DNA of 49,837 bases, filler included, from Sphacelaria rigidula (taxonomy: Eukaryota), in assembly GCA_964200075.2 (NCBI GenBank). It is 2 parts of 2 records of this genome, joined end to end, with 100 filler letters (N's around TTAATTAATTAA, not from the genome) between each part and the next. Parts side by side here need not be neighbours in the genome. Positions count along the whole stretch, not along the records: positions 1 to 24,878 come from CAXNAA020000187.1; 1 more part is not named here. One strand, given 5' to 3'. Each line of letters starts with the position of its first letter. Within the stretch, counting starts at the first letter, position 1. The notes under the pieces were generated by a model, which saw only the letters and a list, made by a program, of their open reading frames with translations, was not told the origin of the DNA and ran no database searches. Shown piece after piece: positions 2,777 through 24,500 of the stretch. The translations under genes and the position numbers were made by a program.

Positions 2777-5700
2777 CTGGACATTCGAGTGGTTGAGAAC
2801 ATCGGGAGTGTTTCGCGTTAGAGAAGGGGAGGGGTGGAAGCACGGCTCATGAAATTCGCCAGGCAGCAGATCCGGCACCATTACACTGAGAACTATTTCA
2901 CGGCCACCCTGCTTCGGCACTGGGTACTAACGGCGTTACAGTCAAACGAGAGATACATGGACCATTACTACTTCGATGCAACTCAAAAAGCTGGAGCAAA
3001 AAAAATAAAAACGTGTCGATGACGCAAATAGAAGCACTGCATCATATATGAAGAAGCACCATGTGAACTCACAGTTAAACGTGACGTTGCTCACCTTGTT
3101 GATCGACACGCATGGTCTGGTCAAGAAAGTGGTGAAATCCTCAACTCCAGACTCTTCCGTCACCGAAAAACTATCTCGCCCAACGGCTACCGCGTACGGA
3201 GGCATAAGAGACACAGGCAAGGGCAAGCACCGCACAGCATCCGCCACCAGAGCTGCGTTCGCCGCCACGGCTTTTTTCGCTGCTTTCCCTTTCGTATCGT
3301 CTTGGAAGAACACCTGTGGACAAGAAAGACGCGGATTGATTCGTCACGTTTTGCGGCCAAAATCACTATATTTTGGACGATGAAACCAACGTCCAGCGAG
3401 GGAAAAACTCATTTACGTAGTACGAGAAGTTATCTCACCTCCACGACCTCGCCGACTTGTAGACCAGCTTTTTTGCGCAGTTTCTGGATACGACTGACGA
3501 TCTCCCGTGACAGCTTTTGAGAGAGCAACTGCTCAAGGACACCACGAAAAAGGCGACGCACGTGACAATGTTTGTAATTGATCATGACGGAGGGAGTAGA
3601 GGAGTGGAGAGGAGGCCAGCTCGGAAATATCATGTCAACATATGATATCATACCAGGTGGCATGATTTGAACGGCCAGCCAAGAGTACTGCATCAAGCAG
3701 TGAAAAATAAATCACAGCGGCACACATGTGCGACGATCTTTCTCATCTCCTGTGAGGATGGTATTACTCCTGCTAGGATACGGCATACGTTTGAGTTTGG
3801 TTCTTTGTGAGGATTTTTTCAAGGATAACATGGAGCTCGTTGTACGGGGTTCACTCCATGTGACTTTCTCGGTCAATGAGGTATGTACCAAGAGGTGAAC
3901 AAAACATCATTCGCCAACCCTGTCGGGATACACGACCAAGAAAAAACAGTCATACATGTGAGCCATGTGCATCGCGTGGTGGTGCTTCCTCTGGCACTTT
4001 GACTCGGTCACCTTTTCGTCTTGCCGGGTGTCCAATACAACCATGAGTTTCCCATCCTCAGACACGGCCGCCTCGTACACTTCTTCATCCCCGTTGAACC
4101 CACGCTTCAGCATCAAGTCATCTCCTGCCAGCGTTTCCCCGCTCACTTCAATGCTGCCTCCCTGTTCCATGTACAAAACGTTCGTGTACACATGCAGGAG
4201 CGAGAGGAATGATGCCAAAATTTTGAAGTCGACTCTTGTGATGTATCACAGGTGAGGCGTCGACTCCAGTGGTTGTGTGAGCTCACGAGTGATATAAAAT
4301 CACTTGCTCCAAATGCAATGCGCCACAGTCATATCATGTGGTTACCTCCAGCAACGGCCACAGAGCGTCCGTACCAAGCTTGGCCAGCTCCTTCTTCACA
4401 CCACCGATCTTGCTGCCTAGCCGCTTGCCCAGCACCTTATTATTCGCCTCTGCCGTAAGCGTGCACCACGCCTTTTCGTCGGCTTCCAACTTCACCTGCT
4501 CCACCAAAATCCACGTGAGGTCGGCGTAACATCAGAAAAAGGAACCCAACACTGAAACAGCATGCGAGTCAGCAAACTGACGGTCATCAAAAAGCCGGTG
4601 GCTGTGGCGTGGCACCCTGGTGTACGAAACCTGCATGAAACCTGTTTCGCTCACAACATGTCTCTCACACTTTCTCAAATTTGGGCCAGAGGAAGTTGGC
4701 ACGGAGGAAGCGAAGCGTGGTACAATCGAAGTGTCGGACCGAAAACTGTGGGCAGACCGAATTACAGAGTACGCCCTCACCTCCCACGCATTTAGCTCCC
4801 CCTTCACATATAGCTGCAGCTTCTCGAGCGCTTGCAATGTGGTCCCATCCTTGCAAACGATAGTTACTCCTTTCACGGGAGTTTTGAGCGAAATACTGCG
4901 TTTGTCGCGAGCGTTCCGGCCGAGGTTGATGACCGTCTGCATCGAGCCCATGTCGGCTTCCGTTCGCTCGTCCACCCTGCATGAAACGTCATCGAAACAT
5001 GAGAGGGGATATATACCTCACCATCAGATCCTTACGGGAATAAAAAAAACATTAGTGTCATGGGACGGATTCAGGGAACACGAAATCATGGGCGACTCAT
5101 CGGGACGAAACGAAGAGTAAGTTATTACCTAGCCTCGTCGACGGGCGGGATCATCAGCATGTGTACCGAGCTGGCCCGACCGGGGGCATCTTCGGCGACG
5201 GACGTGCTATCTCGATCTGGGTGGCACTTCCGGAGGCTGAGGTATGTGTACTCCGAGAAGAACGGCGTGATAGGAGCCATCAGAACCGACATCGTTGTCA
5301 GCACTTCGTACATGCAGTATAGCCCTGGAAAAAAAATAACGCAGCAAAATCGAGTGTGGACATGATGCCTGATCGTGATCATGACTGTCTCATTTCATTC
5401 ATGTTCACGTCACCGTCGCCCTTTCGGGGTAATCCTCGGAATGACAGAAAAAGGTCTCGAGAATATTCTCATCCCTGTATATATCCCCTATATTACCTGA
5501 GTGTATTATTTCACCACAAAAATGGCCTGTTACGAGGAAAAAGCTCAATCTTTACATGTGTAGATCTCGGACGGCTTTGCTTCAAATTTCGACAGGTGAC
5601 CGTTATCAGCGGTTTTCCGCGTGTCACAGAAGTCATTTTGTGAGCAAATCTTCATCGACCTATATCACTCGAGTGATGAACTTCAATGCCTGAGGCGCCC

Positions 5701-8700
5701 ACGTGATCAACCCTCAGATCAGCGCAAAGATTGCTCTTTCGAAAGAGAACGGCATCACACGCAGGGTGGAGTTCAAGTTTGAGATTCTCACGGCGGGCGA
5801 CGGAAACGGAGCAGACACTTGGTCTCCCAGATCGGAAGGTCTCAGACGACTTTGCTACAAGTATCGACAGGTGACCGTTATCAGCGGTGTTCCGCGTGTC
5901 ACAGAAGTCATTTTTGTGGGCAAATCTTCACCGACCTCACGATTTACACGGTATGAACCAAGTCTGGCACCCAATATGAGTTCGGGACGGCCGAAGACAT
6001 CGCGTCATCTCCGGCCTCAAGAAAGTGAATATGTTGGATTCATGAATTTATACGAATATCTTCGTCCACACAGGCTCGGATTACCACGAGAACCGCAGTC
6101 AAAACTTCGCCGAACTTGCCCATCAGCGCAACACTTTGTAGTGAGATAGGGAGACACGCAGGTAAAGGAAAAGTCCGCCGCCTCCTTCACGAGCTACCGA
6201 CAAGCGGTAGAAATCACGTTTCCCAAATCAGCAGGTCTCAGACGGCTTTGCTTCAAGTTTCGACATGTGACCGTTATCAGCGGTGTTCCGCGTGTCACAG
6301 AAGTCATTATTGTGGGCAAATCTTCACCGACCTCACTATTTTCACGTCTCGAATCAGCATCACGTCGACGTTATGCGGGACGGCCGAACATGTTGGGTTT
6401 CACGAATATCTTCACGGCAGTACACGTGGACTCGAAGAACCCAAAAACGTCGACGTTACGCAGGACGGCCGAGCATGTTCGGTTTCACCAACAGATCCAT
6501 GGCAATGCACATGGACTCGAAAAGCCACAAAAACTGCTGTCAACACGACGGTACGGAAACACGAAATAGGTTGACCCTGACGTAGATCTCAGATGAATGT
6601 GCTCAATCTCTCGATAAGTAACCATCATCTGCGGTATTCCGCGTCGCATAAGTCAAAATTGTACGCAAATCTCGCCCGACCTTAAACTTCTTCATATCTC
6701 GCTCCTCATTTGTCTCACAGATCAAGAAGCAGATATTACTGAATTCCCTCACTTGCACACGTATATACTGGTAATGGAATGGACGTTCCCAGGAATCCAG
6801 GTCCCGGACGAATTTGCGTCGATTCCGCCATTACACCCTGGCTCGAAGAAACACGGCAACCGCTGTCATAACGGCGTTCCCCATGAAACGAAATAGGTTG
6901 ACCATGAGGTAGATCTCAGATGAATATGCTCGAACTCTCGACATGTGCCCGTTATCAGCGGTATTCCGCGTCGCAGAAGTCAAAATTGTACGCAAATCTT
7001 CACTGACCTTATATCCTTCCATCAGATCTCGTAACTCACTGACCTCAAATACATAATATCAACTCAAAACATGACAATAAATCCTCCCTCTCACGCGTCA
7101 ATACCGAGGATGGAATGGACGTTTCCAGAGAATTCACGTCTCAGGGTGAATTTGCGTCGATTCACCCGTCACATCCTGGCTCGAAGAACCACAAAAATCG
7201 CATTCATAACAGCGTTCCCCAAAAAAGAAATAGGTTGACCATGAGGTAGATCTCAGATGAATGTGCTCAAACTCTCGACATGTGCCCGTTATCAGCGGTA
7301 TTCCGCGTCGCAGAAGTCAAAATTGTACGCAAATCTTCACTGACCTTGAATATTTTCATCGAATGTCGTAACTGATTGACCCCAAGTACATAATTTGAGG
7401 ACATGCAATAAATCTTCCCTCTTGCACACGTGAATACTGGGGATGAAATGGACGTTTCCGAGAATTTACGTATCGGATGAATTTGCATCCATCCCCCTAT
7501 TACACCCTAGCTTGAAGTACACCACGAAATCGCTGTCAGAACGGCGTTGCTTAAGAAACGAAATAGATTGATCGTGAGGTAGATCTCAGATGAATGTGCT
7601 CGAACTCTCGACATGTGTCCGTTATCAGCGGTATTCCGCGTCGCAGAAGACAAAATTGTACGCAAATCTTCACTGACCTTGAATGTACCATCTCATCTCG
7701 CAACTCATCAACCTTGAAATATAATGTGAACGTAAGACATGACAATGAATCTCCCCCTCCCACCCGTAGATACTCAAGGTAGAGATGAAAGGAACGTTCC
7801 GAGAGTACGGGTCTGGGGACGAATATCACGGATTCCCTCGTACACCCGGGCTCGAAGCGTCGCAGTAGTCAAACTTGTACGCCAATCTATCAACCTTGAA
7901 TCCTTTCATGAAATCCCTCACCAACTAGCGTCCAAATTGATCAAAAAGACATGACACGACGTTGCCCTCCTCGCACTTGTGAATATATCAGTTGGAGATG
8001 GAAGGAACGTTTCAACAGCGTAGGAAGGTCTCAACGGATTTGCATGGATTCCGGACCTTGTCCAGCGTCACACGAGTCATTCCACGAAAAATCTCGAGTG
8101 ATATGGAACCCCATCAAGCACGATTGCACGTCATAGATCGGAACAGGATTACCAACATGGGATGAAAAGATGGAAAATGGGTTCACGACACGGTTGGAAA
8201 AACAGTTTGTTATACCTGTCGTCGCGCTCTCCGTGCCCTCCGCGCCCTTCAGTCGATTGCGGTTTAATCGAACATACCAGTTGGTGAGTTGCTCAATGAA
8301 TCCCACCAACCGCGGCACAACTGTGTACAGACGGTATGCCTTCATTTCGTTGTGCACGAACTATGTCAGGAACAAGGACACGAACGAGAGAAAGGAGGGA
8401 AGGCGGGCCGGCGATGATCGAGGAACCATGTACTTCATGACATGAGATAATTTGGCGACGACCTTCACTCGTCACATTTTCACGATCATTACTTTCCATC
8501 CATCAAAGGCTGGACCGGATCAGTAGCAAAGCATGACCGCGGGGACTTCACACATATGGGCGCGTTCCGAACAAGACATTCCAAAACTGTCAAGTATCCA
8601 TGGCACTACGCACAGGGTTGCCTGTTGCAGTACACTGCAGCCCATGGTAACACGACATTCCTCCCTGCCCCACACATGAAACGCACATGATACAACATCG

Positions 8701-11700: not shown

Positions 11701-14700
11701 AGACGGGACCCAGTACGAGACTTCGTTGCACGCGAGGAGTCTGTCCCGGATGGACTCGACGGCCACGAACCACGATGGCACAGCCTTGTAGATCAGTGGT
11801 GTGTCGGATCGCCAGCAGAACGGGTAGCTGTCGTCACATGAGAATGAGGTGAGGAATGGCAGTTCACATGCATGTGATGCGATGTGAGATCAAGAACTGT
11901 CTCTACCGCGAGGTTTGAGCCGAGTGACTAGTATCTTAGGAAGCATGTTGCACAAGCGGTCTCGATACCCGGTCACGAAGAGGATGCATTCACCACGGGC
12001 ACCAAGACCCGACCATGATGTGATGGGTAAAGTCTCGGAACGAAAAGGGTCGTCGCTTTTCCCAAATACAGCACAAAGCAAGGTAGACTGGGTGTGTGAT
12101 GCTCCGAAAATACTCCTTTCTGCGTTCACAGCATTACTGAAGTAAAACCAGGTGTGCGATGCTCCGAAAACCCGAGCGCCAGAGGTGATTGTTGCGCCGA
12201 GTTCCATAACGTCACTTGTTTTATTTCGCTCCCGAGGCATAACATCAAAAATGTTGGGGGTTGAGCACGATTCATGAGGTCAATAGATCGTTCCCCCCCC
12301 CGCCCGAGCTGGAATATGAGTCGGAAAAATAACTCCGTACACTCCGCGGAAAACCAGCGCGTCTCCCATGCTAGAGATGATGTGAAATCAGCATGCACAC
12401 AAACGCTGGCAGAGCAACGCACCATCATTCGCAGTCGCCGGACCAAGCACTACCCCTGTGTGGCTCGCATCCAGATCCTCATAAATCAAAGCTCAAAAGA
12501 CTCTCGCACAACCACTCGCGTATCCTGACACGCACCTGTGCTTGTAGTTGTCCTTGGAGACCAGCCTGCCATTGCTCTTGATCTCCTCGCACAGAGCCTT
12601 GTCTGCCTCCTTCACATACTGCCCCGCGTACTTGCCCACCTCTGACGTGAAAAGCCTTCACTCGATTTGTCACACATCGTCACAATAAACTGCGGAGGTC
12701 AATGTTTCCATCAAATTTCATGAGGGTATCGAGACGACACCCACAGCACGCGGTAGTCAACCTGCACCGCATATTCCAGCTTTCAAGACTTCATGTTTAC
12801 ACAAACTGGGGGGGGGGTCCAACGTTTCACTATTTAGCGTGTGCTCACCCGTTCGAGTCCACTGGGCACGGGATATCTTCTCCCTTATCGATGACGCCAT
12901 GCGCCAGGCAGACCCGGTAATCATCCTCTCCGAACGCCGGTGCCTTGAGGGGTAAGAGAGCGAACGGATGACAGGTACAGGCAAGTATCATTGATCGTCT
13001 CGTTCGCGGATCGAATGACATGAACCATTAAACATGTTAGCTTAGTTTCTTGACGAGATGTGGAACGAATTTTCATCCAGTCACACGAGGTATCACGAGT
13101 GTTGACAATTTGGGAAAATGGCATCCTTTTATCCGGAGTTCCCTCAACATATGACATACTGGCTATGCCGGTACCAACATTCCGCACAGCAAGATCGTGG
13201 AAAAGACTCCGCTTTGATTTCGTACGAAGAACGCCCTGAGCAAATTAACCGCAGTGCAGACTGATGATATGTCGCGCTTTAGCTGACCCTTCCAGGGGTC
13301 CAACCACGGTCGCATAGTAGACGTACCTCAGAAAAGCAATACTGAAACCCCCCCTGATAAGAGCCGCTCAGCATGTTAATCCTATTATACGAGGGCAACA
13401 CGGGGAACAGTCAGAGAACCTACAGCCATTGGCTCTCATGATGAAGAATCAAGCCGTTTCCTTTGTGAAAGGTTTTCATCATCCTGTTCCCTGTCCCAGA
13501 GTTGTTTTCACCCAGCATCGCACGAATGGTTCAACTTCAACGTCCACAAATGCAGCGCATGGTGAACGGCACAGATGTCAAAAAACGGTCTGCCGTCCCT
13601 TCATGTACGGCGCCCGTGTCACAAGTCTACCAGTAGATCGGCGAATATGTTCAACTGCGGACGAACAGTTATTTGTGCGGGCTCTCGACTGCTGTATGGA
13701 AATTGGGGGACCACGTGAGCAGGAGGCCGAACTCATCCTCGTGTGCTCAACAGTGATCAAAATATGTTGAGGATAGCTCGATGATGCTTCGCCAAACTTG
13801 GGGCACAACGTTAGGCACATCCGAAACAGGAAGTCGCCCTTCGGCTGAGAGGATCCAGTATCTTACAGATATCAATAACGGCAACGGCAACGACGACAGC
13901 CAGAAGGATAAAGACACAAGCGAGAACGACGTTTACCTGGTGAACGATGCCCGTACCGCTGTCATTCGTCACGTAGCTGTCGGAACACACCACAAAAGAC
14001 GTGGCACGGTTGGCGTAGAAGTCGAACATCGGTTCGTACGCCATACCCACCATCGTCGAACCCTTGACCGTCTCCAGTTCTGGAACGTGGGCGCACGTAT
14101 GAAACGGTTCGGGAGCAATTAATCATCAGCGTTGTGATCATCTGATGGCGAATGTGACAAGAAAACGTCAACCGCACGAATGAACCAACAAATATGCGGC
14201 AGTCTACTCCATCTCACTCCCGAAAGTCACCAAATTAGGTTCGTCCTCCGGAGTATCAGTCTCCGATGCAGACGATTGTGTCGGGCACTCATCATGATGG
14301 GTAACAGACATGCGTGACACAATCGGTCCCAGAAGGACACCGACTGCGGACTCCGACGTTATAATGCACAGCTAAGGGGTCCACCGAATTCACCACTCAG
14401 AGCAAATTCCGATGTGCCCCAGGTTTGATGTTGTGACTGCTGGACCTGGGCAACGACGGGCTGTGCAGGCCCAAGTTCAAGATGAGCGAGTTTGATCAAG
14501 CATCCTCGCAAGCGGTATCCGGCCACGTTGTAAAATGGGAGTCCGCCTCGTCAACGTTTGGCAGGCTAGATTAACCACCAAAAATTTGGGGATAAAACCT
14601 TCTCAGGAATACGAACACAGCTAATGAGTGAAAAAAGAACAGCGCTCAGACATCCAAGGAAGATTGGTGCCCCAGGCTCAAACACAGCCCGGCTGGGCGT

Positions 14701-17700
14701 GTGAGCGTCGGCGAGATCACTGCGAATGATTTATGGGAAATATACCGTCATCATTGCGCTAATTCTTGTTTTTTTCATCACCCCGCGAATTCGCCCGGCG
14801 TCACTTGTCCCTGAAAACATGTTCGAACGGCAGCATGAGATATCGGAGCAAGACCAGAACCAGAGCGTCACGTGACACGGTTAAATCCAGTGAACCACAG
14901 AGTGGTCAGGTTTGCGCGACAGAAACGCTGGGATATCCAAAACGTTCGATGCCCAACGCTCGAACATTTACCGCTGTGCGGTGCGTGTGGGTGTCGGCAC
15001 GGTCATTTGCGAATGATTGACTGAGGATGGCATACGCGTGAGACCACAATCGTGGTTGATGGTGTAGCACCGTCCTAGATAGAATTAGGTTCCTGTTCTA
15101 GGGGAGCATGAACACACCCCACCGCTTCCAACCCCTCGATCGAGAGGTGGTCGATGGCAATCCTGTGCGCGTTGAAGGCTGGTTATATCATCCTTCCAGT
15201 CCAGGTGTTGGGACTTGAAAGTACTCTTTCCGCAACGCTACTGGAACGCCACCCTGGGATAGGAATGCGTCTCACGTCTCACGCTCCTCACCTTCCATAA
15301 GATCCGCCTTCATCGCGGGCTTGTACTTCTTCGTGTTCATTACTGGGTATAGCTGGGACAAGCGCTCGGCACCGCAGTAGTATACCTTCCCGCTCTTTTT
15401 ATCCCTGAAATGTGGTGCGCAAACAGTGTCCAGTCAAACGTCAACAGTCGCGAGCCGTGAAGCAGACACACGGGGAATCGATGTCAGTCGTCTCAAACTA
15501 GTGCATCTCCCGTGGAAAATGAGCGTATCCCGACTTTTACTTGTGAAAACCACTCAGATGGCAATTGCGTTACTTGTAACCCGAGAGTGAAGAGCAGCTT
15601 GCGTTTCCATCGGCTCGGTACCATCGAGAGTTCAGGACGTCGAAAGACACGGCGCTCAAATACTACTCGGCGCTCAATTACTACACACAGCGGCATCGCC
15701 AAAGCGGCGTATCGCAGGAGATAGTACCGAGACAAGGAGGGAAGGCACGCATGTAAAACTCTTGGGCTAACGTAGGGGGAATAGTCCACATTAGTAAAAG
15801 TCGTACGCAGTCAAAATGATGGCCTTGGGCTCTCAATTGTAGTGCGACTGCGTGTTGATGTCGACCGTGGAGGCGGCATCTGTTCAATTTCAGGGGTATT
15901 TTCGACGGCCCTCCGGTCGTCGATATATCCGGTCAATATCATCATCCAACCCACAGGCCGAGTCGAGAGGTCTCAGCCACTATTGTTGGGTCCATAATGT
16001 TCCTCCCCGACAAACATCTTCTCCTGATGACACCTCTCGAGAGTTGAGTTCTTACAGCAAGACTATAAATTGGATTCGTATGTCGAGCGTGGTTCACAAA
16101 TCCGAGATATGGCGATGGAAGAAGAGCTGATAGAAGCTCTTCCTCTCACCGCCCTCAGGCTTGCTTGTTATGGCGCCCTCTGTTTCACCAGTTGCTTTTG
16201 GCCGCCTTGTGCGCCGCAAACGCCATTTCTCCGGGGCTGAGCACACGGCCGCCCCGGAGCTTTACGGGCGAGGCAGTGACTCTAATAGGCGGCCGAGTAC
16301 CGTTTCCCATGTTGGTTCCAACAGACCTCAAAGACGTATCCCGCCGTCGCATGAAGATCATATGAGGTGAACATAGGGAGAGAAAACTCTCACTGCATCA
16401 TTACATCAGCTCAGAGCTTGTTCACAAGCCATGGCGCTGTAATCTCGAACTATGGCGCCCTGCCAACTGGTCTCGGATGGCATGGCTGTCATATTGTTCA
16501 AGTGTTGACTAGATCCGGGAAGAACTTCCCAGAAAGAGCCCATCCCTTCGATTTCGTGCTCTTTTCAAAAAAGCTGTCAGATACACTCCCCATCATCAGA
16601 TACTCCATCATCAGATATGTATATGTACGCATGTTCCGTTCACACTAAGCACTCAGATTGTATGTCAAAAGTCTGAAACCCCCAAGCCCGATATCGAGCA
16701 GTGCGGGGATCCTTGACGTATATGACCTCAGCGTTCAATCTCACCTGAGCTTGATGTAGTCAAACTCTGCGTTGACACAAAGAGCCAGGTTAGAGGGTAA
16801 GGTCCACGGCGTTGTTGTCCAAGCCAACAAGCTCGTCTGCAAGCGTTGACGAGGAAAGCAAGGTGCGAAGAAAGGGCAAAGTCAAACACCAATGCTCGAG
16901 ATGAGCGCTAGTTGAAGGAAATGCCCATCGATTCTCAACGTTGTCGACGTGGAAGGGAGGTCGACCGCGCACGGCAGACGAGGGCGGTTCGAGATTACAT
17001 GAAAGAATTTGTTCGGGTAGTTTTCACCATCGAGGTACAGTCCGGTTCCGGCTACGAAGGACGGCTTTTCTGCAGTCCCTCGAGAAGATGGCCGCAAAAG
17101 GTTGCCATAGATTTATCTTCTATTCAGTATACAACACCTGAACGGCTTGTTTTCTCGCGTACATACGGGGGTACCGAATCCGACAACAGTATTTTTCCCG
17201 ACGTGGCAACACCATGGCTTTGCGTTTACCACCGACTGGTGCACCATGCTGCAGATATCGGGCGTGGTTTACACCCCTGAAATTAGACATGAAGGGCGAG
17301 TTAAGAAACCTCGAAGTCCCTCCACGTCGTCAGGTGTGCTTGTCATCGCGCTCGCTGTTCCAACAGTTTATCTCGGCCGCCTTGTGCGCCGCAAACGCCA
17401 TTTCCTCGAGGGTAAGCACACAGCAACCCCCGAGGCTTTACGGGCGAGGCAGTGACTCTAATAGGCGGCCAACCGTCAGGGTTAAACCCCAACAGGGATC
17501 TCGGGTTTTGTTCAAGGTTGTAAAACTAAACTGGAACGAAGAGTTTCAGACAAATTTGTTGTGACTGAACTGTGTCAAATCGTGACGTCGAGGTGTGACG
17601 GTACGGATGGTGGCTACCGTCACGGGGGAAGAGCTGCCGTGTTCTTCATTATAATGAAACAATGACCCAGAAGCAGATCAAACGGGGAACCCTGCGAGCA

Positions 17701-20700
17701 GTCTGTGTACCCAGTACCGACGTGAAAATTTGTGATGGTAATCAAGGATGGAAATTTCCACGAACTGTCGAAACGAAAGTTGGTGATTTCTAATTTGAAC
17801 GTCTTGCTCACACACGTGCCTTCCCGGTCTTCTTCAAAACGTACCTCCGGGTCGTCTTTGAGGGGAAAGGACACAACCACCGCGGGATCCGACACGTCCT
17901 TGTAGTTCAACCCTGCCTCGAAGTTACTGAGCGGTGTGGCGCAGGCCGTCGAGAAAGGCATGACCTTGTATCCGCGGTAGACGAGACCCTTCTCGTGCAG
18001 GGTCTTAAAAACCCACCACACGCTTTCCATAAACCAAGGGTCCTGTTTCCGGAAGCAAATCAAGCACATAATAATGAGACAAATTCAATATTTCCATATT
18101 TGACGGGTACAAGCGTATGTGAAGCTAGGTCAATTCATCGCCTCCTGAAAACGACACCCGGAAGAATTGGAAATCCTCCGGATCCTTGTCGTAGCCACCT
18201 CACCATGGTTTTGTAGTCGTTTTGGAAGTCGATCCACCGTCCCAAACGCTTGATCGTAACTTCCCACTCCTTCGAGTAGCGCGTCACGATGCTACGGCAG
18301 TGCTGGTTGTAGGTCTTGATTCCCATCTCAAGGACCTGGTCGCGGTGTTTGATGTTGAGCGCCTGATCGATCTCGTATTCCACCGGCAGACCGTGACAAT
18401 CCCAACCGGCTCGTCGAGAGACGTAGTGACCCGACTGGTGGGCGTATCGCGTCACGGCATCCTTGATGGTGCCTGGACATACAAGGGTTACCAACATTAC
18501 CCAACAGTTAGCTGCAGTTTCCCGGCCCATGCTGGAACTCAACGCCCTCGCATTCCTTTGGTTGATACGTCGAAAGTAGTACATCACGTACGCACGTCAT
18601 GAGTGACTGCACACATTTCGGAATAAAATGCGAATATCAACTGAAACCGCGGTGCTCGGAGAGGACGAGCCGCAGCCTCACAACAACGAGCGGAAAAAAG
18701 AGGCACACGCGCACTTCCGTGCATTCCGCAGTGGGGGGATTTGGGAGTATCACAATAGATGTGCTCCTGCGCGGTCTACATCTCTACAACACTGCTTGGT
18801 GTGAGGCTAGTAGGTTCACCCCCTGCGGAAAGAGCGGCGATCTGGTTCGCAGAAGTCACTCAAACGATTTCACATTTGCATGGCTACACTGGCTCGTTCA
18901 TATCCGACGGTCACTGCTCAAGTGAAGGTGATGCCAGCTCGGCATGGAGTCGACGTTGAGCATTCCACAGCCCACACAAAATGCATGCTCTCACGCACTC
19001 GCAGGTTTTACATTTAGTATTTCAAAACCACATCTATCGCTGACACACTGGCATCAACACCACGCAGGGTGATGTAAGATTGAACGGTTGGCCGACACTG
19101 GCGGATGACAGCAGATCTTCTCTGATTATCCTGGGCACGAAGCTGAGGGGCCACAGTTATGTTCGGTTTCACACGGAAGAATCTTACCGTGGGCGGCAAA
19201 AAAATGTGTGCCTTCCAGGACGAAGCGGACATGAGACGATAGCTCAGTTCAAACTTCCAGCCTGCTTAGAATGCGCACTGTGCGGAGACAACTTGAACGA
19301 ACACAGGCGGGATCGAGTTCCCGCAGCTACTGCGGCCCGTGTATACCATGACAGAAAACATACGTTTATTCGGACACCACGGCAGACTTTTACGCTCATC
19401 AGCCGTCATGGTACGGGGCCATTCCCGAGATATCAAGATTATTAAGGGACATTCGTGAACTGTTCATCCTAGACTAGTGTGCCATCGCCTCGGGGCAGCG
19501 CCAGCCTTGGGAATATCAAGAGGCGGGTCTGCACGGTAAGCAAAGGCATCCGCGTACCTGCCACCCGTCCCACCCGAAAATGGGCGGGACGAGGGAGGCG
19601 TCCACGGTCTTTCATGTTCCTGCGTTTTCAGAGTTGCGTTCACGGCGACGCCGGCTCCGTCCAAACAAAGTTTGACGAAGACAGCGGGCTAACGCAGCCT
19701 CAAGTTTCTGACAGGGTTTCGTTGAAACAATCATGGTACGCTCCCACGTGAATACACGCAGAAAGAGAACAAGACGATGCGGGTATGGCAGCTCCTGGAC
19801 GATCAAGGACTACAAACATTTCTCAGCATCCGTACACCCCTCCACCTAGATGACACCGTTTTTTTGCACGTTTTACGGATCATTAGCGATCCGTTCATAA
19901 AAGTAGTGCTGATCAGAAATTAAATGAGACGGATGATATGTAACAAGGTAATCTTCGGGGTTAAACATGTCTAGGTGACACCATCTCACCGGCGAGAATG
20001 TGCCCGTAATGGGGCAGCCCTGTGGCGAACGGTGGCCCATCGTAGAAGGTGAACTCCGGCCGTCCTTCACTGAGCCTCAAGGTCTCTTTAAACGTGCCAT
20101 TTTCCTCCCACGACGCCTTGTTTTTCATCGATCACGTGAAGAGAGTCCCAGTCATTTCTCAGAACACAAGAATTTTGTGGAGTTGATATATCGGGCTGCG
20201 ATGTGTCTACGGTTGATTTCACTTGGTTCGAGTGTAGACAGGCCAAAGCCGCATCTTCAGTGGGGCTGACAACGCCGTGGGCTCATGGGGAGCGCAGAAA
20301 GCAATTTCGTTCAAATCGGCGTCAACGCCGCACTTCGCCTGGGGAATCTCGTGCGTCTCCCTTGCCCGAGAGTACTTGGTACGCCTCCGGTTGGGGTTGG
20401 GGTTAAAGTCAACGATAGCTGTCAAATGTGTCAACCACGAAAGGACTGCAGCGGCGACGCCGGTTCCACCACCTCCATGAGTGAGTCAAAACGACAGGGC
20501 AATCAAGATCGAAATGCGGGAAAATCAGTCAGATTGCGAAACGAAAAGCGGACCCACCACGGACGAACTGGGGCTTCCATGTGCTGTTTATGCGTCTGGA
20601 GCAACAGCAAACACCTGATAAAACTGTTAGCTGATGTACGTGACGTTGGATGCGGTGAGATCGGTCAAGAAGGATAGCGAAAGGCGACAGAAACACCCAC

Positions 20701-21575
20701 TCGGACCACGAATAACTCATCCGAATATTTCACAGACCAAGCTGCGAGGCATTGATATCCGAGTTCCAGGTGGTATCGGTGCCACTTGTTCCACATACGT
20801 CATGGAGTTGAGCGGAGGGTGTAAGTAATTTTCAAGAGCGACCAAAGTGTGCCATCGCCTCGGGGCAGCGCCAGCCTTGTGATCGGTAATAGAGGCAAGT
20901 CTGCACGGTAAGCGAAGGCTTCCGCGTACCTGCCGCCCGTCCCGCTCGGTACGAGGGGGACGGGGGAGGCGTCCACGGGTTTTCATATTCCTGCGTTTTC
21001 AGAGTTGCATTCACGGCGACGCCGGCTTCGTTCAAACGGAGTTAGACACCGCCAGCGGGCTAATGCAGCCTCAAGTTTCCAACAGGTGTTTGCGAATTTT
21101 GCTACCCTCACATTCTACGAATTTTCGTCCGCGTAAAAAATCAACTCCACTGTACTTGATGGTGCGGGGGTATTGCAGTACACGCCTTGAAGACGTCACA
21201 AGGGTGCACGACTGACCCGACTGCCGGCACAGATGAGATAGACGACATGCGTAGGCAGAAACCGGGACAAACCTGATGGTTAACGTGAGACCCGTTCAAG
21301 TTTTCAGAGGCAGTAATGGAGGAAGAAACCGTTTATTAGAATGCAGGACAGCTGGCAGCAAGCGACTCTCATTGCACGTTGCCAAACCTTTCGATCCGAC
21401 AGAACTAGAGGCAACAGAACCCTCCCTTGTGCGCTCGAAAATATTTGCTCCGTTACGGACAAATGCGGGGAAATAGTGTTGCTACGGGACTGACAGCCAA
21501 TCTCCATTCTTGCCGACTCACCGCAATTTTCGCCTCTTCTGCTGAAAAGTTGATCGCACCCTCGATGTCCTCCAT
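2552..21575 (-). CDS. IARS1: Cytosolic isoleucine--tRNA ligase (class I aaRS), spliced gene of 24 coding exons, ~1169 aa
   Basis: Joined exons give [20 protein letters not shown] (HIGH motif), [21 protein letters not shown] and [16 protein letters not shown] (editing domain), [24 protein letters not shown] and [12 protein letters not shown] (KMSKS motif). All introns are GT-AG, phases match, total 3510 nt, stop TGA at 2552-2554. An alternative in-frame ATG at 21593 adds MKGIAF. Confidence 0.96.
3095..3313 (-). CDS. IARS1: IleRS exon 23
   Basis: [10 protein letters not shown]...RPCVSINK; cag|, |GTGAGC. Confidence 0.85.
3439..3528 (-). CDS. IARS1: IleRS exon 22
   Basis: [30 protein letters not shown]; cag|, |GTGAGA. 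Confidence 0.93.
4012..4161 (-). CDS. IARS1: IleRS exon 21
   Basis: [11 protein letters not shown]...[10 protein letters not shown]; cag|, |GTGACC. Confidence 0.9.
4346..4495 (-). CDS. IARS1: IleRS exon 20
   Basis: [27 protein letters not shown]...; cag|, |GTAACC. Confidence 0.91.
4781..4976 (-). CDS. IARS1: IleRS exon 19
   Basis: VDERTE...[16 protein letters not shown]...ELNAWE; cag|, |GTGAGG. Confidence 0.93.
5129..5324 (-). CDS. IARS1: IleRS exon 18
   Basis: LYCMYEVL...[10 protein letters not shown]...SVHML; cag|, |GTAATA. Confidence 0.94.
5558..8060. repeat. Intronic tandem array, ~330-bp period, about 7 diverged units plus a partial unit
   Basis: Core ...CCGTTATCAGCGGT.TTCCGCGT...AGAAGTCA...GCAAATCTTCA..GACCT recurs at ~5560, 5840, 6235, 6563, 6890, 7228, 7560 and partially at 7855. 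Confidence 0.9.
8216..8360 (-). CDS. IARS1: IleRS exon 17
   Basis: [18 protein letters not shown]...[15 protein letters not shown]; tag|, |GTATAA. Confidence 0.94.
8801..8917 (-). CDS. IARS1: IleRS exon 16
   Basis: ARRLE...[18 protein letters not shown]; aag|, |GTGTGT. Confidence 0.9.
9435..9604 (-). CDS. IARS1: IleRS exon 15
   Basis: [26 protein letters not shown]...FFVQQ; tag|, |GTGTGA. Confidence 0.95.
9917..10055 (-). CDS. IARS1: IleRS exon 14 (KMSKR motif)
   Basis: TRGWFYTL...[20 protein letters not shown]; cag|, |GTGAAA. Confidence 0.95.
10332..10454 (-). CDS. IARS1: IleRS exon 13
   Basis: [13 protein letters not shown]...[11 protein letters not shown]; cag|, |GTGTGT. Confidence 0.95.
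10705..10788 (-). CDS. IARS1: IleRS exon 12
   Basis: [28 protein letters not shown]; cag|, |GTGAGG. Confidence 0.94.
11273..11411 (-). CDS. IARS1: IleRS exon 11
   Basis: [22 protein letters not shown]...; cag|, |GTCAGG. Confidence 0.95.
11672..11827 (-). CDS. IARS1: IleRS exon 10
   Basis: [21 protein letters not shown]...KEKRFQNW; cag|, |GTGAGA. Confidence 0.95.
12536..12655 (-). CDS. IARS1: IleRS exon 9
   Basis: [19 protein letters not shown]...NYKHS; aag|, |GTGCGT. Confidence 0.92.
12849..12943 (-). CDS. IARS1: IleRS exon 8
   Basis: [12 protein letters not shown]...CPVDSNG; aag|, |GTGAGC. Confidence 0.93.
13403..13491 (-). ncRNA. Box C/D snoRNA, target unassigned, in IleRS intron 7
   Basis: 8-bp terminal stem GGGAACAG/CUGUUCCC directly flanks box C AUGAUGA and box D CUGA. 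Possible internal D' UUGA. 89 nt, sense to the host. Confidence 0.72.
13937..14079 (-). CDS. IARS1: IleRS exon 7
   Basis: [18 protein letters not shown]...[15 protein letters not shown]; cag|, |GTAAAC. Confidence 0.93.
14641..14760 (-). ncRNA. U14: U14 box C/D snoRNA in IleRS intron 6
   Basis: Terminal stem AGCGC/GCGCU, box C AUGAUGA, domain A CAUUCGCAGU (antisense to 18S ACUGCGAAUG), domain B UUCCUUGGAUGU directly before box D CUGA. These are the diagnostic U14 elements. Sense to the host gene. Confidence 0.93.
15292..15404 (-). CDS. IARS1: IleRS exon 6
   Basis: [20 protein letters not shown]...; cag|, |GTGAGG; phases fit both neighbours. Confidence 0.88.
16078..16294 (-). ncRNA. Long H/ACA snoRNA family 1, copy in intron 5
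   Basis: Hairpin closed by GGCCGCCU/AGGCGGCC, H box AAAGCA, second hairpin, ACA+3 nt. Paralog at 17253-17470 has compensatory stem changes. Confidence 0.75.
16745..16836 (-). CDS. IARS1: IleRS exon 5
   Basis: [22 protein letters not shown]; cag|, |GTGAGA. Confidence 0.95.
17253..17470 (-). ncRNA. Long H/ACA snoRNA family 1, copy in intron 4
   Basis: Same 5' hairpin and pocket, H box AGAUAA, 3' end GUAAACCACGCCCG-AUA-NNN (AUA variant of the ACA box). Confidence 0.72.
17845..18042 (-). CDS. IARS1: IleRS exon 4
   Basis: [13 protein letters not shown]...TPLSNFEA...DDPE; cag|, |GTACGT. Confidence 0.95.
18204..18472 (-). CDS. IARS1: IleRS exon 3
   Basis: [10 protein letters not shown]...[10 protein letters not shown]...NDYKTM; cag|, |GTGAGG. 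Confidence 0.95.
19475..19705 (-). ncRNA. Long three-hairpin H/ACA snoRNA family 2, copy in intron 2
   Basis: 5' hairpin, H box ACAUGA, internal hairpin, 3' hairpin with pocket ACCGU/CCCG 14 nt from ACA+3. Paralog at 20845-21076. Confidence 0.75.
19990..20116 (-). CDS. IARS1: IleRS exon 2 (HYGH motif)
   Basis: ASWEENGTF...[21 protein letters not shown]; aag| acceptor, |GTGAGA donor. Confidence 0.93.
20845..21076 (-). ncRNA. Long three-hairpin H/ACA snoRNA family 2, copy in intron 1
   Basis: Paralog of 19475-19705. H box AUAUGA, identical 3' pocket and ACA box, differences concentrated in apical stems and loops. Confidence 0.75.
21522..21575 (-). CDS. IARS1: IleRS exon 1 ([18 protein letters not shown])
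   Basis: ATG ... GCG|GTGAGT strong donor. Joins in frame to exon 2 (ASWEE) and resembles the F.EE..I..W N-terminus of IleRS. Confidence 0.8.
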
Positions 21576-24500
21576 GAATGCAATCCCCTTCATTTCACAT
21601 CAATATTCCGGGGCGGGAGGAAGAGGGAGGGAGGGGGGGGGGGGTATAACGACGCGGCGGTCAAGACGGGGTACACATGAGAACGACAGACACTTCAACT
21701 TCCGACGAAAATGGGGATATGATGACTAGGAGCTCATTAAAGAGGGGCCTTGCGCATGCATGCTCCCCTCTCGAGTGTGATGTCTGGTTCAACCTCAACA
21801 GGGGTCGCCAACTGATCATCATTAGGTCCACGACGTGGAGAATGGTTGTAGGAAGTACAGTGCCCATGACGGTCAGATCCCAGTGCCTATTCCAAGAGAT
21901 CTTGTATGTGCGGCATACGAAGGGATTCCGCGTTCGTTGCACCCCTCCGTAGTCACGCGTCAGATGAGAGACTCGGGCGGGGCTTGATTTCCAGTCCCTC
22001 AAGAGTGAGCCGCGACAGTTGTAGTGCAATTATGGAAACGAGGATATCGTATAGCACAACAGTGAGATGAGAAGGATACGGTGAGGCGAACACGGCTACG
22101 ATGAATTTCGACCGCAACAAGGGTGTTCCGCACCGTGGTTAATACGACAGAACTGTCAACAATGGGCTGGGCTGTACGGTAGAAGTTTGAAGTTTTGTTT
22201 CCGTGAAAATCTCTGGCTCCATCAAATCGAGTTGGAAACTCGGTGTACGCGCAGTGGGGTGGAGGTATTTTGAAGATTTTTTATTTCATTCATCTCATGC
22301 CTCACTCTCGTGCTGGAGGAAGGCGGCGGGCACACTTTCTTCTCCATACACGGGGCATTTTCCGTCAGGGCCTTTTCACTTGCGGCTCAGGGAGGATGGT
22401 CATAGAAACGACACGGAATCTTTCGACTTCGAAAGTTTTTTTTCCAACCAACTGCCATGTCTACCGTACTGGATGGAGTGGACAAGATCATTTCTCACGT
22501 GGGGGTTGGCAGGGTGCAGATTTACACTTCGTTGATGGACGTACCGACGGACGGTACAGTGAACGGCACAGTGGTGGCGACGTACAGGCGGCGAGATGGA
22601 GTTGTTTTTGTAGTAAAATCTTGGTGTTAGGAGGGCACATCAGCCGCCGATGCATGCATCGGTTGACGATCACATGCATCTCCCGATCAAGGATGTAGTG
22701 ATGAATCATGAACATCCACAGACGGGTCTGAGATACGCAACGTTTAGAACCGGTCTTCTTGGCACCCTGAGGCCGAAGGCAAGCGTGTGGACGTCCGCCG
22801 TTCAAGAGAAAAAAACACGGTACGCACAACTTGTACGCAATTTTCTTTTCACGTTTTGTCGGTAGGGTCGTGACGAAAGATGCGGCTAGGGTTTATGCTT
22901 GAATCATTTCCCCGAGTTGCGCGACACAGCTATTCACACCAACGCATCGCAAAAACGAGTACGTACTGCACGCCAACGTGCCGCACACACAAGGGCTAGT
23001 GGTGGTTGTGTTGCATTCGCAGTAGAGGGAAAAAACGAATAATTCGTGTTCGAAAGACTGGACACGATGACAAGACAAACATACGAATCGATCCTTGACC
23101 GACTCGACACGATTTTCGCCGGTGCACTATACCTTTCCTGCATGCTCTTCTTCCGCCATGTTGTAGCCCGTGATCCAATTCTCACCCACCACTTGCGATG
23201 CAGCACGGACTACCCAGCCGCTCGTGTCCAGTATGTACAGTGCGCAGACGGGGGTGGGCTTGTGCGTGAACAACAGACTAAATGCAGTTGATAAGACGCA
23301 TTGTAAAAGTCGTTCTTTAAATCCATTCGCATTTCTGTCATTATTTATGATTACTTAATTTTCCTTAGGATTTTCCCACCACGGAGGTTTGACACTCGCA
23401 GGTGCCTTTTCTTTCTAGAACTCCTCTCTTGGCAAATACTGGAGAGCGTAACTCATTAGATGGCGTTACTCTGATGTGATGTATACAGTGTTTGATTGGC
23501 ACCTTTAACCTTCCTTTCGATGACAGAATAATGGATACTGCAGGGTGGTGTGAACGAAACTCTACGGCTATCCTTTTGGATCTTGATTTTATCCAAAGCA
23601 ATTGCACTTCACTACATCGACCATAATCTACTCTGACTAAGAGCTTCAAGCCTATCGTAGAGTTTATTCTTTTTCCTGGCATAAATTACTGCACGCGATT
23701 TGATTGGACTTACGGACACTGCGGCCAACGGGACTACAATAGCCTGTAGTCAAATGTTATGAGGAAAATCAAGAAGAAGTGAGCCAGCCACAAGCGTCCA
23801 TCTCGACTAGCAGTTGGCTCTAGCTGTTCCAACATGGCTTCTTGGGTGGACGAGTCGCCGGAGGGAATCTCCGCCAACATTTCCATCACTAGTACCGATA
23901 AGTTCACCGTTCTAGATGCAGCTTCCCAGTTGCAAGCTACCAGTATAACCGACACCGGCGCAACAGTAGCGGATCGCGCTATGCCAGCAGCCAAAAGCAC
24001 TGCGGATAAGGGTAAGGGCAAGGGCAAATCCAAGGCTTCAGGCGCGACTGGAGGAGGTGGTGCTGCTAAATCACTTGCGGATGCTGCACCGGGGAAAAAA
24101 GGCAAGTTGTTGCACTGCCAAGCACCGGTACTGTGAACTGTAAATGTGCTGCTGCTGAAAAATTGCGCGAACGTTTTTAGGAACACTTTAGTTGTTTCTC
24201 CCTGAAGTGTAGGACTTGTGGTTGCCAGCAGCACGGCAACGCCGGTAGATACACCTGTCTGTGCGGAGCGCATGTGGGTACGGGCAGACGGATAACAGTG
24301 GTCATGCTAAACGAACGCGTTAAGCACCACAAGAGCGTAGTAGTTGAGCAAATCAAGAAGCAGCGAAGCTCAACCAATCGACACCTCAATCTTGAGCTGC
24401 TGTTGGCCGTGCTGCTATTAAATATTTACCGCAGCGCACAGCACAATCCATGGCGAGGATGATCCTGTAACTCCCCCTGTCTGCACTGTGGTTTTTTTAT

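Follow-up and report, generated by a model that had tools for sequence, protein, structure and literature searches.

A probable intron-encoded box H/ACA RNA family in the brown alga Sphacelaria rigidula with a 5′ pocket predicted to guide pseudouridylation at the LSU rRNA site equivalent to yeast U2416

Do two similar stretches of about 217 nt, lying in neighbouring introns of one gene of the brown alga Sphacelaria rigidula, encode a box H/ACA guide RNA, and which RNAs would its two pockets address? We analyzed a window of 49,837 nt (the whole stretch of DNA under study, assembly GCA_964200075.2), in which a first-pass annotation had placed a duplicated long H/ACA RNA in introns 4 and 5 of a gene. 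Both copies were found where that annotation had put them, on the minus strand and within the first 24,878 bases of the window (contig C187): copy A at 17253..17470 (~218 nt) and copy B at 16078..16294 (~217 nt), each a two-hairpin RNA. Their host locus is a minus-strand isoleucyl-tRNA synthetase (IleRS) gene, a name that rests on the protein matches of the exon at 18203..18471 (-), which shares 92% identity with Ectocarpus and Pylaiella proteins and 74-84% with the other 116 of the 120 matches listed, save one unnamed match at 91%. Exon joints were taken from the contigs of four sequencing runs presumed to be RNA, which connect 21590-21521, 20115-19989, 18471-18203, 18041-17845, 16836-16744 and 15403-15292, the exon at 16744..16836 (-) separating the two introns that hold the copies. 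RNA contigs also join to this chain an upstream exon at ~23136, opening with MAEEEHAGK, so copies A and B lie in introns 5 and 6 and the intron numbers first given have to be raised by one. Both copies are in sense orientation, 374-674 nt from the splice sites.

The same gene carries further features. A U14-like C/D snoRNA (SNORD14) at 14642..14759 (-) occupies intron 7, the next after that of copy B; its match (E 1.4e-8, 50.4 bits) falls below the gathering score of 64, so that routine annotation would miss it. A second duplicated structured RNA of ~240 nt lies at 19476-19715 (intron 3) and 20846-21086 (intron 2), both on the minus strand and ~87% identical to each other. This pair has an ANANNA word and a final ACA and no Rfam match, and a rough pocket scan made without controls ranked first an LSU uridine ~185 nt downstream of the 2416 site discussed below. 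Also in intron 2, a spliced contig of run X4 runs on for 429 nt (20117-20544) and does not join the exon at 21521, reflecting either intron retention or an alternative start. In the 3′ part of the gene (window ~5500-7700, minus strand) the reading frames contain several repetitions of a similar motif, which suggests a tandem repeat inside an intron.

A DNA search of the genome located a third copy at G000:C362:17071-17270 (+), hereafter the C362 copy, which is likewise sense in an intron, here of an unrelated gene whose reading frames resemble an EH-domain/dynamin-type GTPase (a label given by eye). The reciprocal search with the C362 copy as query returned the same three places; these 3 matches in 244 Mb, obtained from two different queries, are lower bounds. 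A covariance model (R1) was run over 71,874 bases and matched nothing there beyond the 3 copies it was trained on, and a pattern search for paralogs based on the 3′ pocket gave 63 matches against 52 for the control, too small an excess to be informative.

All three copies have the hairpin-hinge-hairpin-tail fold of a box H/ACA snoRNA. Folding z-scores against shuffled sequences are -4.29 for copy B, -3.62 for copy A and -2.07 for the C362 copy, and 93.8% of the 129 cells in the three-copy alignment are paired, a U-U in the lower stem of the C362 copy notwithstanding. In each copy an H box of the form ANANNA stands in the hinge, one nt past the first stem; the boxes proposed earlier, AAAGCA in copy B (16193..16198, -) and AGAUAA in copy A (17368..17373, -), both sit exactly there. 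The terminal box follows the second stem, the 3′ ends being predicted: an ACA had been assumed throughout, and copy B (16081..16083, -) and the C362 copy do carry one, whereas copy A ends in the variant AUA (17256..17258, -). A 3-bp mini-hairpin after the H box (16180..16191, -, in copy B), also claimed in the first-pass annotation, is present in the two window copies but not in the C362 copy, which lacks the CUG/CAG mini-hairpin as well as the RAACCA word considered below; both elements are thus limited to the window copies. Two-sided changes occur at 7 of 43 pairs, a count reached by 1 of 500 shuffles and compared with 0-1 pairs in slid controls, which is limited evidence, as it comes from three related sequences and from a structure that is the RNAalifold consensus of these sequences less the pocket pairs. 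Among the changes are those of the apical stem for which covariation had been proposed, and these are compensatory at pairs 37-66 and 38-65. Fold, boxes and the pocket geometry described below together support the H/ACA reading, as do the sense position within introns of both host genes and the U14-like RNA one intron further on.

Conservation is uneven along the RNA. Identity between copies A and B is 88.7% in the 5′ hairpins and 66.9% in the 3′ halves, while their 150-nt flanks (52.7% and 50.7%) are no more alike than random intron pairs (mean 51.4%, n=100). A duplication that placed one copy in the adjacent intron is the most likely origin of the pair. Could they instead be a non-functional repeat, such as a MITE or SINE remnant, or snoRNA pseudogenes? 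Copies at two loci and 3′ halves drifted to 67% identity would suit this explanation, and contigs from the presumed-RNA runs are equivocal: contigs at depth 2-3 span most of copy B in 2 of the 4 runs, one of them (16083-16278) wholly inside it, and similar contigs occur elsewhere in introns; among the contigs listed, the bin of copy A is covered in 1 of 4 runs and that of the U14-like RNA in 0 of 4. Against a repeat, the two different queries found just 3 matches (a lower bound) in 244 Mb, the copies are not flanked by terminal inverted repeats, each copy has the sense orientation within an intron, and boxes, spacing and pocket are kept while the stems covary. A transposon family, which the first-pass annotation had named as one outcome that would overturn its proposal, is unlikely with three copies as a lower bound and no bounding inverted repeats, and we regard a repeat or pseudogene explanation as very improbable. 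We retain the reading of a structured H/ACA family.

The 5′ pocket is made of a left strand (16278..16286 in copy B and 17454..17462 in copy A, both -) and a right strand (16207..16212 and 17382..17387, both -). In either copy the left strand forms 9 bp, one of them G-U, with LSU rRNA 3′ of the target, and the right strand, which starts 14 nt before the H box, forms 5 of 6 possible pairs with LSU rRNA 5′ of it, so that 14 of 15 positions pair around the uridine equivalent to yeast U2416. The distance of 14 nt from pocket to H box is the same in all three copies. The target rule for such guides asks for a U at ~14 nt from the box and for bipartite pairing of 8 bp or more; the 5′ pocket has 14 nt and 9+5 bp.

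For the target scan, another eukaryote's rRNA served as a proxy, since the assembly yielded no intact nuclear rDNA but only decayed nuclear fragments on several contigs; a target in a variable region could escape the scan for this reason. Organelle-type rRNA genes were seen on contigs C1, C13 and C5, and U2 and U5 genes lie ~0.5-2.3 kb apart on three contigs (C20114, C24969 and C25777). The scan covered 18S, ITS/5.8S, 28S, U2, U5 and U6. Proxy rDNA came from eukaryotic rDNA contaminating public prokaryote assemblies. Since 31 of these loci were fetched by a pattern containing the target, that they carry it is circular; 12 further contigs were fetched by a different LSU pattern, of which 4 show the exact site and 8 are without that landmark in the DNA examined.

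In each of the 6 LSU sequences scanned a single uridine was set apart by its score of 11.5-12.5, the next reaching 8.5 or less. By energy, the 2416-equivalent scored -19.7 kcal/mol against -12.6 for the next site, and 6 of 200 shuffled pockets reached the top value; by pair count, 4 of 60 shuffles reached the observed score. This shuffle support (3-7%) is modest by itself, although the best of ~1,500 uridines coincides with a known pseudouridine site, which would give the assignment weight beyond the shuffle figure. We anchored the numbering on 16 positions from the yeast modification table (PMC8307265): 14-16 of the 16 agree in 5 of 5 rRNAs with the target taken as yeast 2416, and a shift by 1-2 leaves 2-7. 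In yeast, Psi2416 of 25S rRNA is guided by snR11 (PMC8307265, PMC5699541). The one flaw in the duplex is an A-A mismatch 3 nt from the target. H/ACA pairing has a minimum of 8 bp and tolerates single internal mismatches (PMC6049503), and double mismatches near the target strongly slow the reaction in vitro (PMC6800473). Two decayed remnants of the target site in the alga's own genome carry 1 and 2 substitutions, and both retain the A facing the guide's A.

The functional group of snR11 and SNORA3 is defined by a pocket that can pair with LSU rRNA at the equivalent of yeast U2416, as this 5′ pocket can. The closest counterpart we found is Ot-HAsno108 of the green alga Ostreococcus tauri, which the PMC7671301 supplement lists with SNORA3 and snR11 and reports as expressed at 216-260 TPM. 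It is likewise a long H/ACA RNA (199 nt) with a 5′-hairpin pocket near-identical on both strands: compared by eye, the upper stem of Ot-HAsno108 is preceded by UAGAGUCAC and followed by GCGG-CGCUCA, and that of the S. rigidula copies by UAGAGUCAC and GCGG-CGCACA. The GCUCA of its right strand matches the rRNA, unlike the GCACA of our copies; it is a single copy in an intergenic cluster, whereas ours are three and intronic; and no clear likeness of the 3′ hairpins was apparent by eye. Its targets in that supplement are predictions, with the site numbered two ways (U2259 and U2251/2252). The claim made earlier for the 5′ pocket, an LSU target in the snR11/ACA3 region with one mismatch, is thus borne out by pocket geometry, the target scan, the numbering anchor and this Ostreococcus counterpart. 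SNORA3, given in the same supplement for the snR11 site and so for the site of the alga's 5′ pocket, guides human 28S Psi3899 and, as a second target, Psi3938 (ACA3; PMC12931454). In Neurospora, ACA11 matches snR11 (PMC5824354) and was first listed as an orphan of 176 nt (PMC2780460); the accessible text of PMC4247016 and PMC3511168 has little bearing on these RNAs.

The likeness to snR11 lies in the target, 25S Psi2416, and is not a demonstrated sequence homology. Yeast snR11 is independently transcribed and ~258 nt long. Searched against Rfam, the window gave 0 matches at gathering, and positions 14000-22000 gave only SNORD14 at E up to 5. The specific comparison that the first-pass annotation had proposed came out negative, with no SNORA3, snR11, SNORA73 or snR30 match for either window copy at E up to 10; the 4 weak matches of one copy and the 1 of the other at that level include no H/ACA family, and the C362 locus has no SNORA3/snR11 match at E up to 5. 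We therefore file these RNAs as working like snR11/SNORA3 and not as members of an Rfam family. A pattern search for orthologs returned 10 metagenome matches, which we attribute to chance since 0 of 10 has the lower stem or the H box, and 0 in viral contigs and 0 in prokaryote genome contigs.

Is the RNA rather the alga's snR30/U17 processing RNA, or a hybrid with an m2 element? The first-pass annotation had likened RAACCA, next to the terminal box, to the m2 motif of U17/snR30, while remarking that no m1 was visible. Copy length is near that of U17, for which the table of PMC7601244 mostly gives 203-240 nt; in A and B the 3′ strand of the 3′ loop does carry RAACCA; and a pattern search identified no canonical snR30 elsewhere in the genome: it gave 8 matches against 4 in the control, the best-looking of which was rejected as it does not fold (z +0.79), and 5 of the 8 loci, compared with Rfam, had no snoRNA match. 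According to PMC2664660 and PMC7601244, m1 and m2 are both needed on the basal sides of the snR30/U17 3′ loop, and the first of these gives an m2-to-ACA spacing of invariantly 7 nt, a shortening by 2 nt almost abolishing 18S processing. In A and B, m1 (AUAUUCCU-type) is absent, as first remarked; the word reads (R)AACCAC where m2 has AAACCAU, and 5 nt separate its end from the box. The C362 copy lacks the word altogether, and the one AUUCC that it has lies in the apical stem and not in the loop. With a guide-type 5′ pocket and the Rfam result added, the resemblance to m2 was rejected, and an snR30/U17 identity or hybrid is extremely improbable; the 2416-type guide remains the preferred reading.

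The 3′ pocket is conserved in part, with ACRAGCA on its left strand (16162..16168, -, in copy B) and the m2-like word within its right strand (16090..16098, -). It had been called an orphan, and so it stands: no target in the scan exceeded the shuffles. The top score for the three copies jointly, -16.3 kcal/mol, was reached by 22 of 200 shuffles, whose best scores average -14.1 kcal/mol, and the site concerned was not seen in the best lists of the other rRNAs; taken singly, the copies had top scores reached by 35, 24 and 14 of 60 shuffles. U5 and U6 provide no 3′-pocket target among the top six, nor does the equivalent of Psi3938, the second target of SNORA3, figure among the top 3′-pocket matches in the proxy rRNAs, where it falls in a variable region.

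Two conserved sites rank second and third for the three copies jointly, the LSU U2822-equivalent (-15.5 kcal/mol), four bases before Psi2826 in the peptidyl-transferase loop, and the 5′ end of 18S near U27 (-15.3 kcal/mol), and would make the RNA a dual-function guide that adds one of them to Psi2416. By eye, the left strand forms 6 of 6 bp at U2822, pairs also form at the GU and CC that are invariant in the right strand, and the distance from the box is 14, 14 and 15 nt; the numbering anchor holds for 8 of 8 positions in 4 of 5 rRNAs and for 7 of 8 in the fifth. For U27 the left strand forms 7-8 bp, at 15, 15 and 16 nt from the box. Neither score rises above chance, however, given the 22 of 200 shuffles that reach the top value; U2822 needs two mismatches on one side (right strand 5 of 7), and U27 has only 2 bp on the right strand where the known minimum is 3 (PMC6800473). 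U2822 is also absent from the available portion of the yeast table (PMC8307265), a literature search on it returned nothing, and the accessible part of a Chaetomium paper (PMC12723226) holds no usable site list for it. We consider a dual function of this kind doubtful. Equally doubtful is the notion that the conserved 3′ pocket truly acts as a second guide, for a pseudouridine at the U2822-equivalent that is missing from the tables consulted and would be reached through a mismatched right strand, or that it acts as a folding chaperone by holding the 18S 5′ helix; in the latter case one RNA would have both an LSU modification role and an SSU assembly role.

The 3′ pocket of the C362 copy differs from that of A and B, and it alone fits U39 of U2, which may be divergence to a new target or chance. 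A past or present U2-targeting pocket that survives in the C362 copy and has decayed in the other two would account for the pairing of the C362 copy with the alga's own U2 at U39 (8 of 9 and 5 of 5 positions, at 14 nt from the box); U2 U39 is a listed target of a SCARNA4 counterpart in Ostreococcus (PMC7671301 supplement). The score is nevertheless reached by 14 of 60 shuffles, copies A and B have three adjacent mismatches at this site, which lies at 13 nt in them, the right strand of the C362 copy can pair within its own lower stem, and no CAB-like loop was seen by eye. We judge such a U2 function quite unlikely, and keep to a 5′ pocket with an LSU target beside a 3′ hairpin that is structurally kept, with no demonstrable rRNA or snRNA target.

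From the observed sequence, intronic sense position, covariation, boxes and complementarity, we infer that the three copies are very probably an intron-encoded box H/ACA snoRNA family whose 5′ pocket guides pseudouridylation at the LSU site equal to yeast U2416, with expression, RNP assembly, catalysis and origin among the inferred parts. After splicing, the RNA would be freed from its intron and bind the core of Cbf5/dyskerin, Nop10, Nhp2 and Gar1 by way of the H and ACA/AUA boxes, and the 5′ pocket would hold LSU rRNA in place for conversion of the yeast 25S U2416 equivalent to pseudouridine.

Our literature searches returned no description of a brown-algal snR11/SNORA3 guide; a catalogue of Ectocarpus non-coding RNAs, which reportedly exists, may already list an ortholog. 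The pocket motif common to this alga and a green alga suggests, as far as sequence comparison goes, that the guide-target pair is old, but convergence on a conserved target would also yield similar pockets. The locus presents IleRS as a host of multiple snoRNAs, two of them belonging to a three-copy family with a diverging 3′ pocket. In this way the snR11/SNORA3 guide would be extended to brown algae, where Rfam models miss it. This is useful annotation, and would amount to new biology only if one of the unusual targets turned out to be that of the 3′ pocket.
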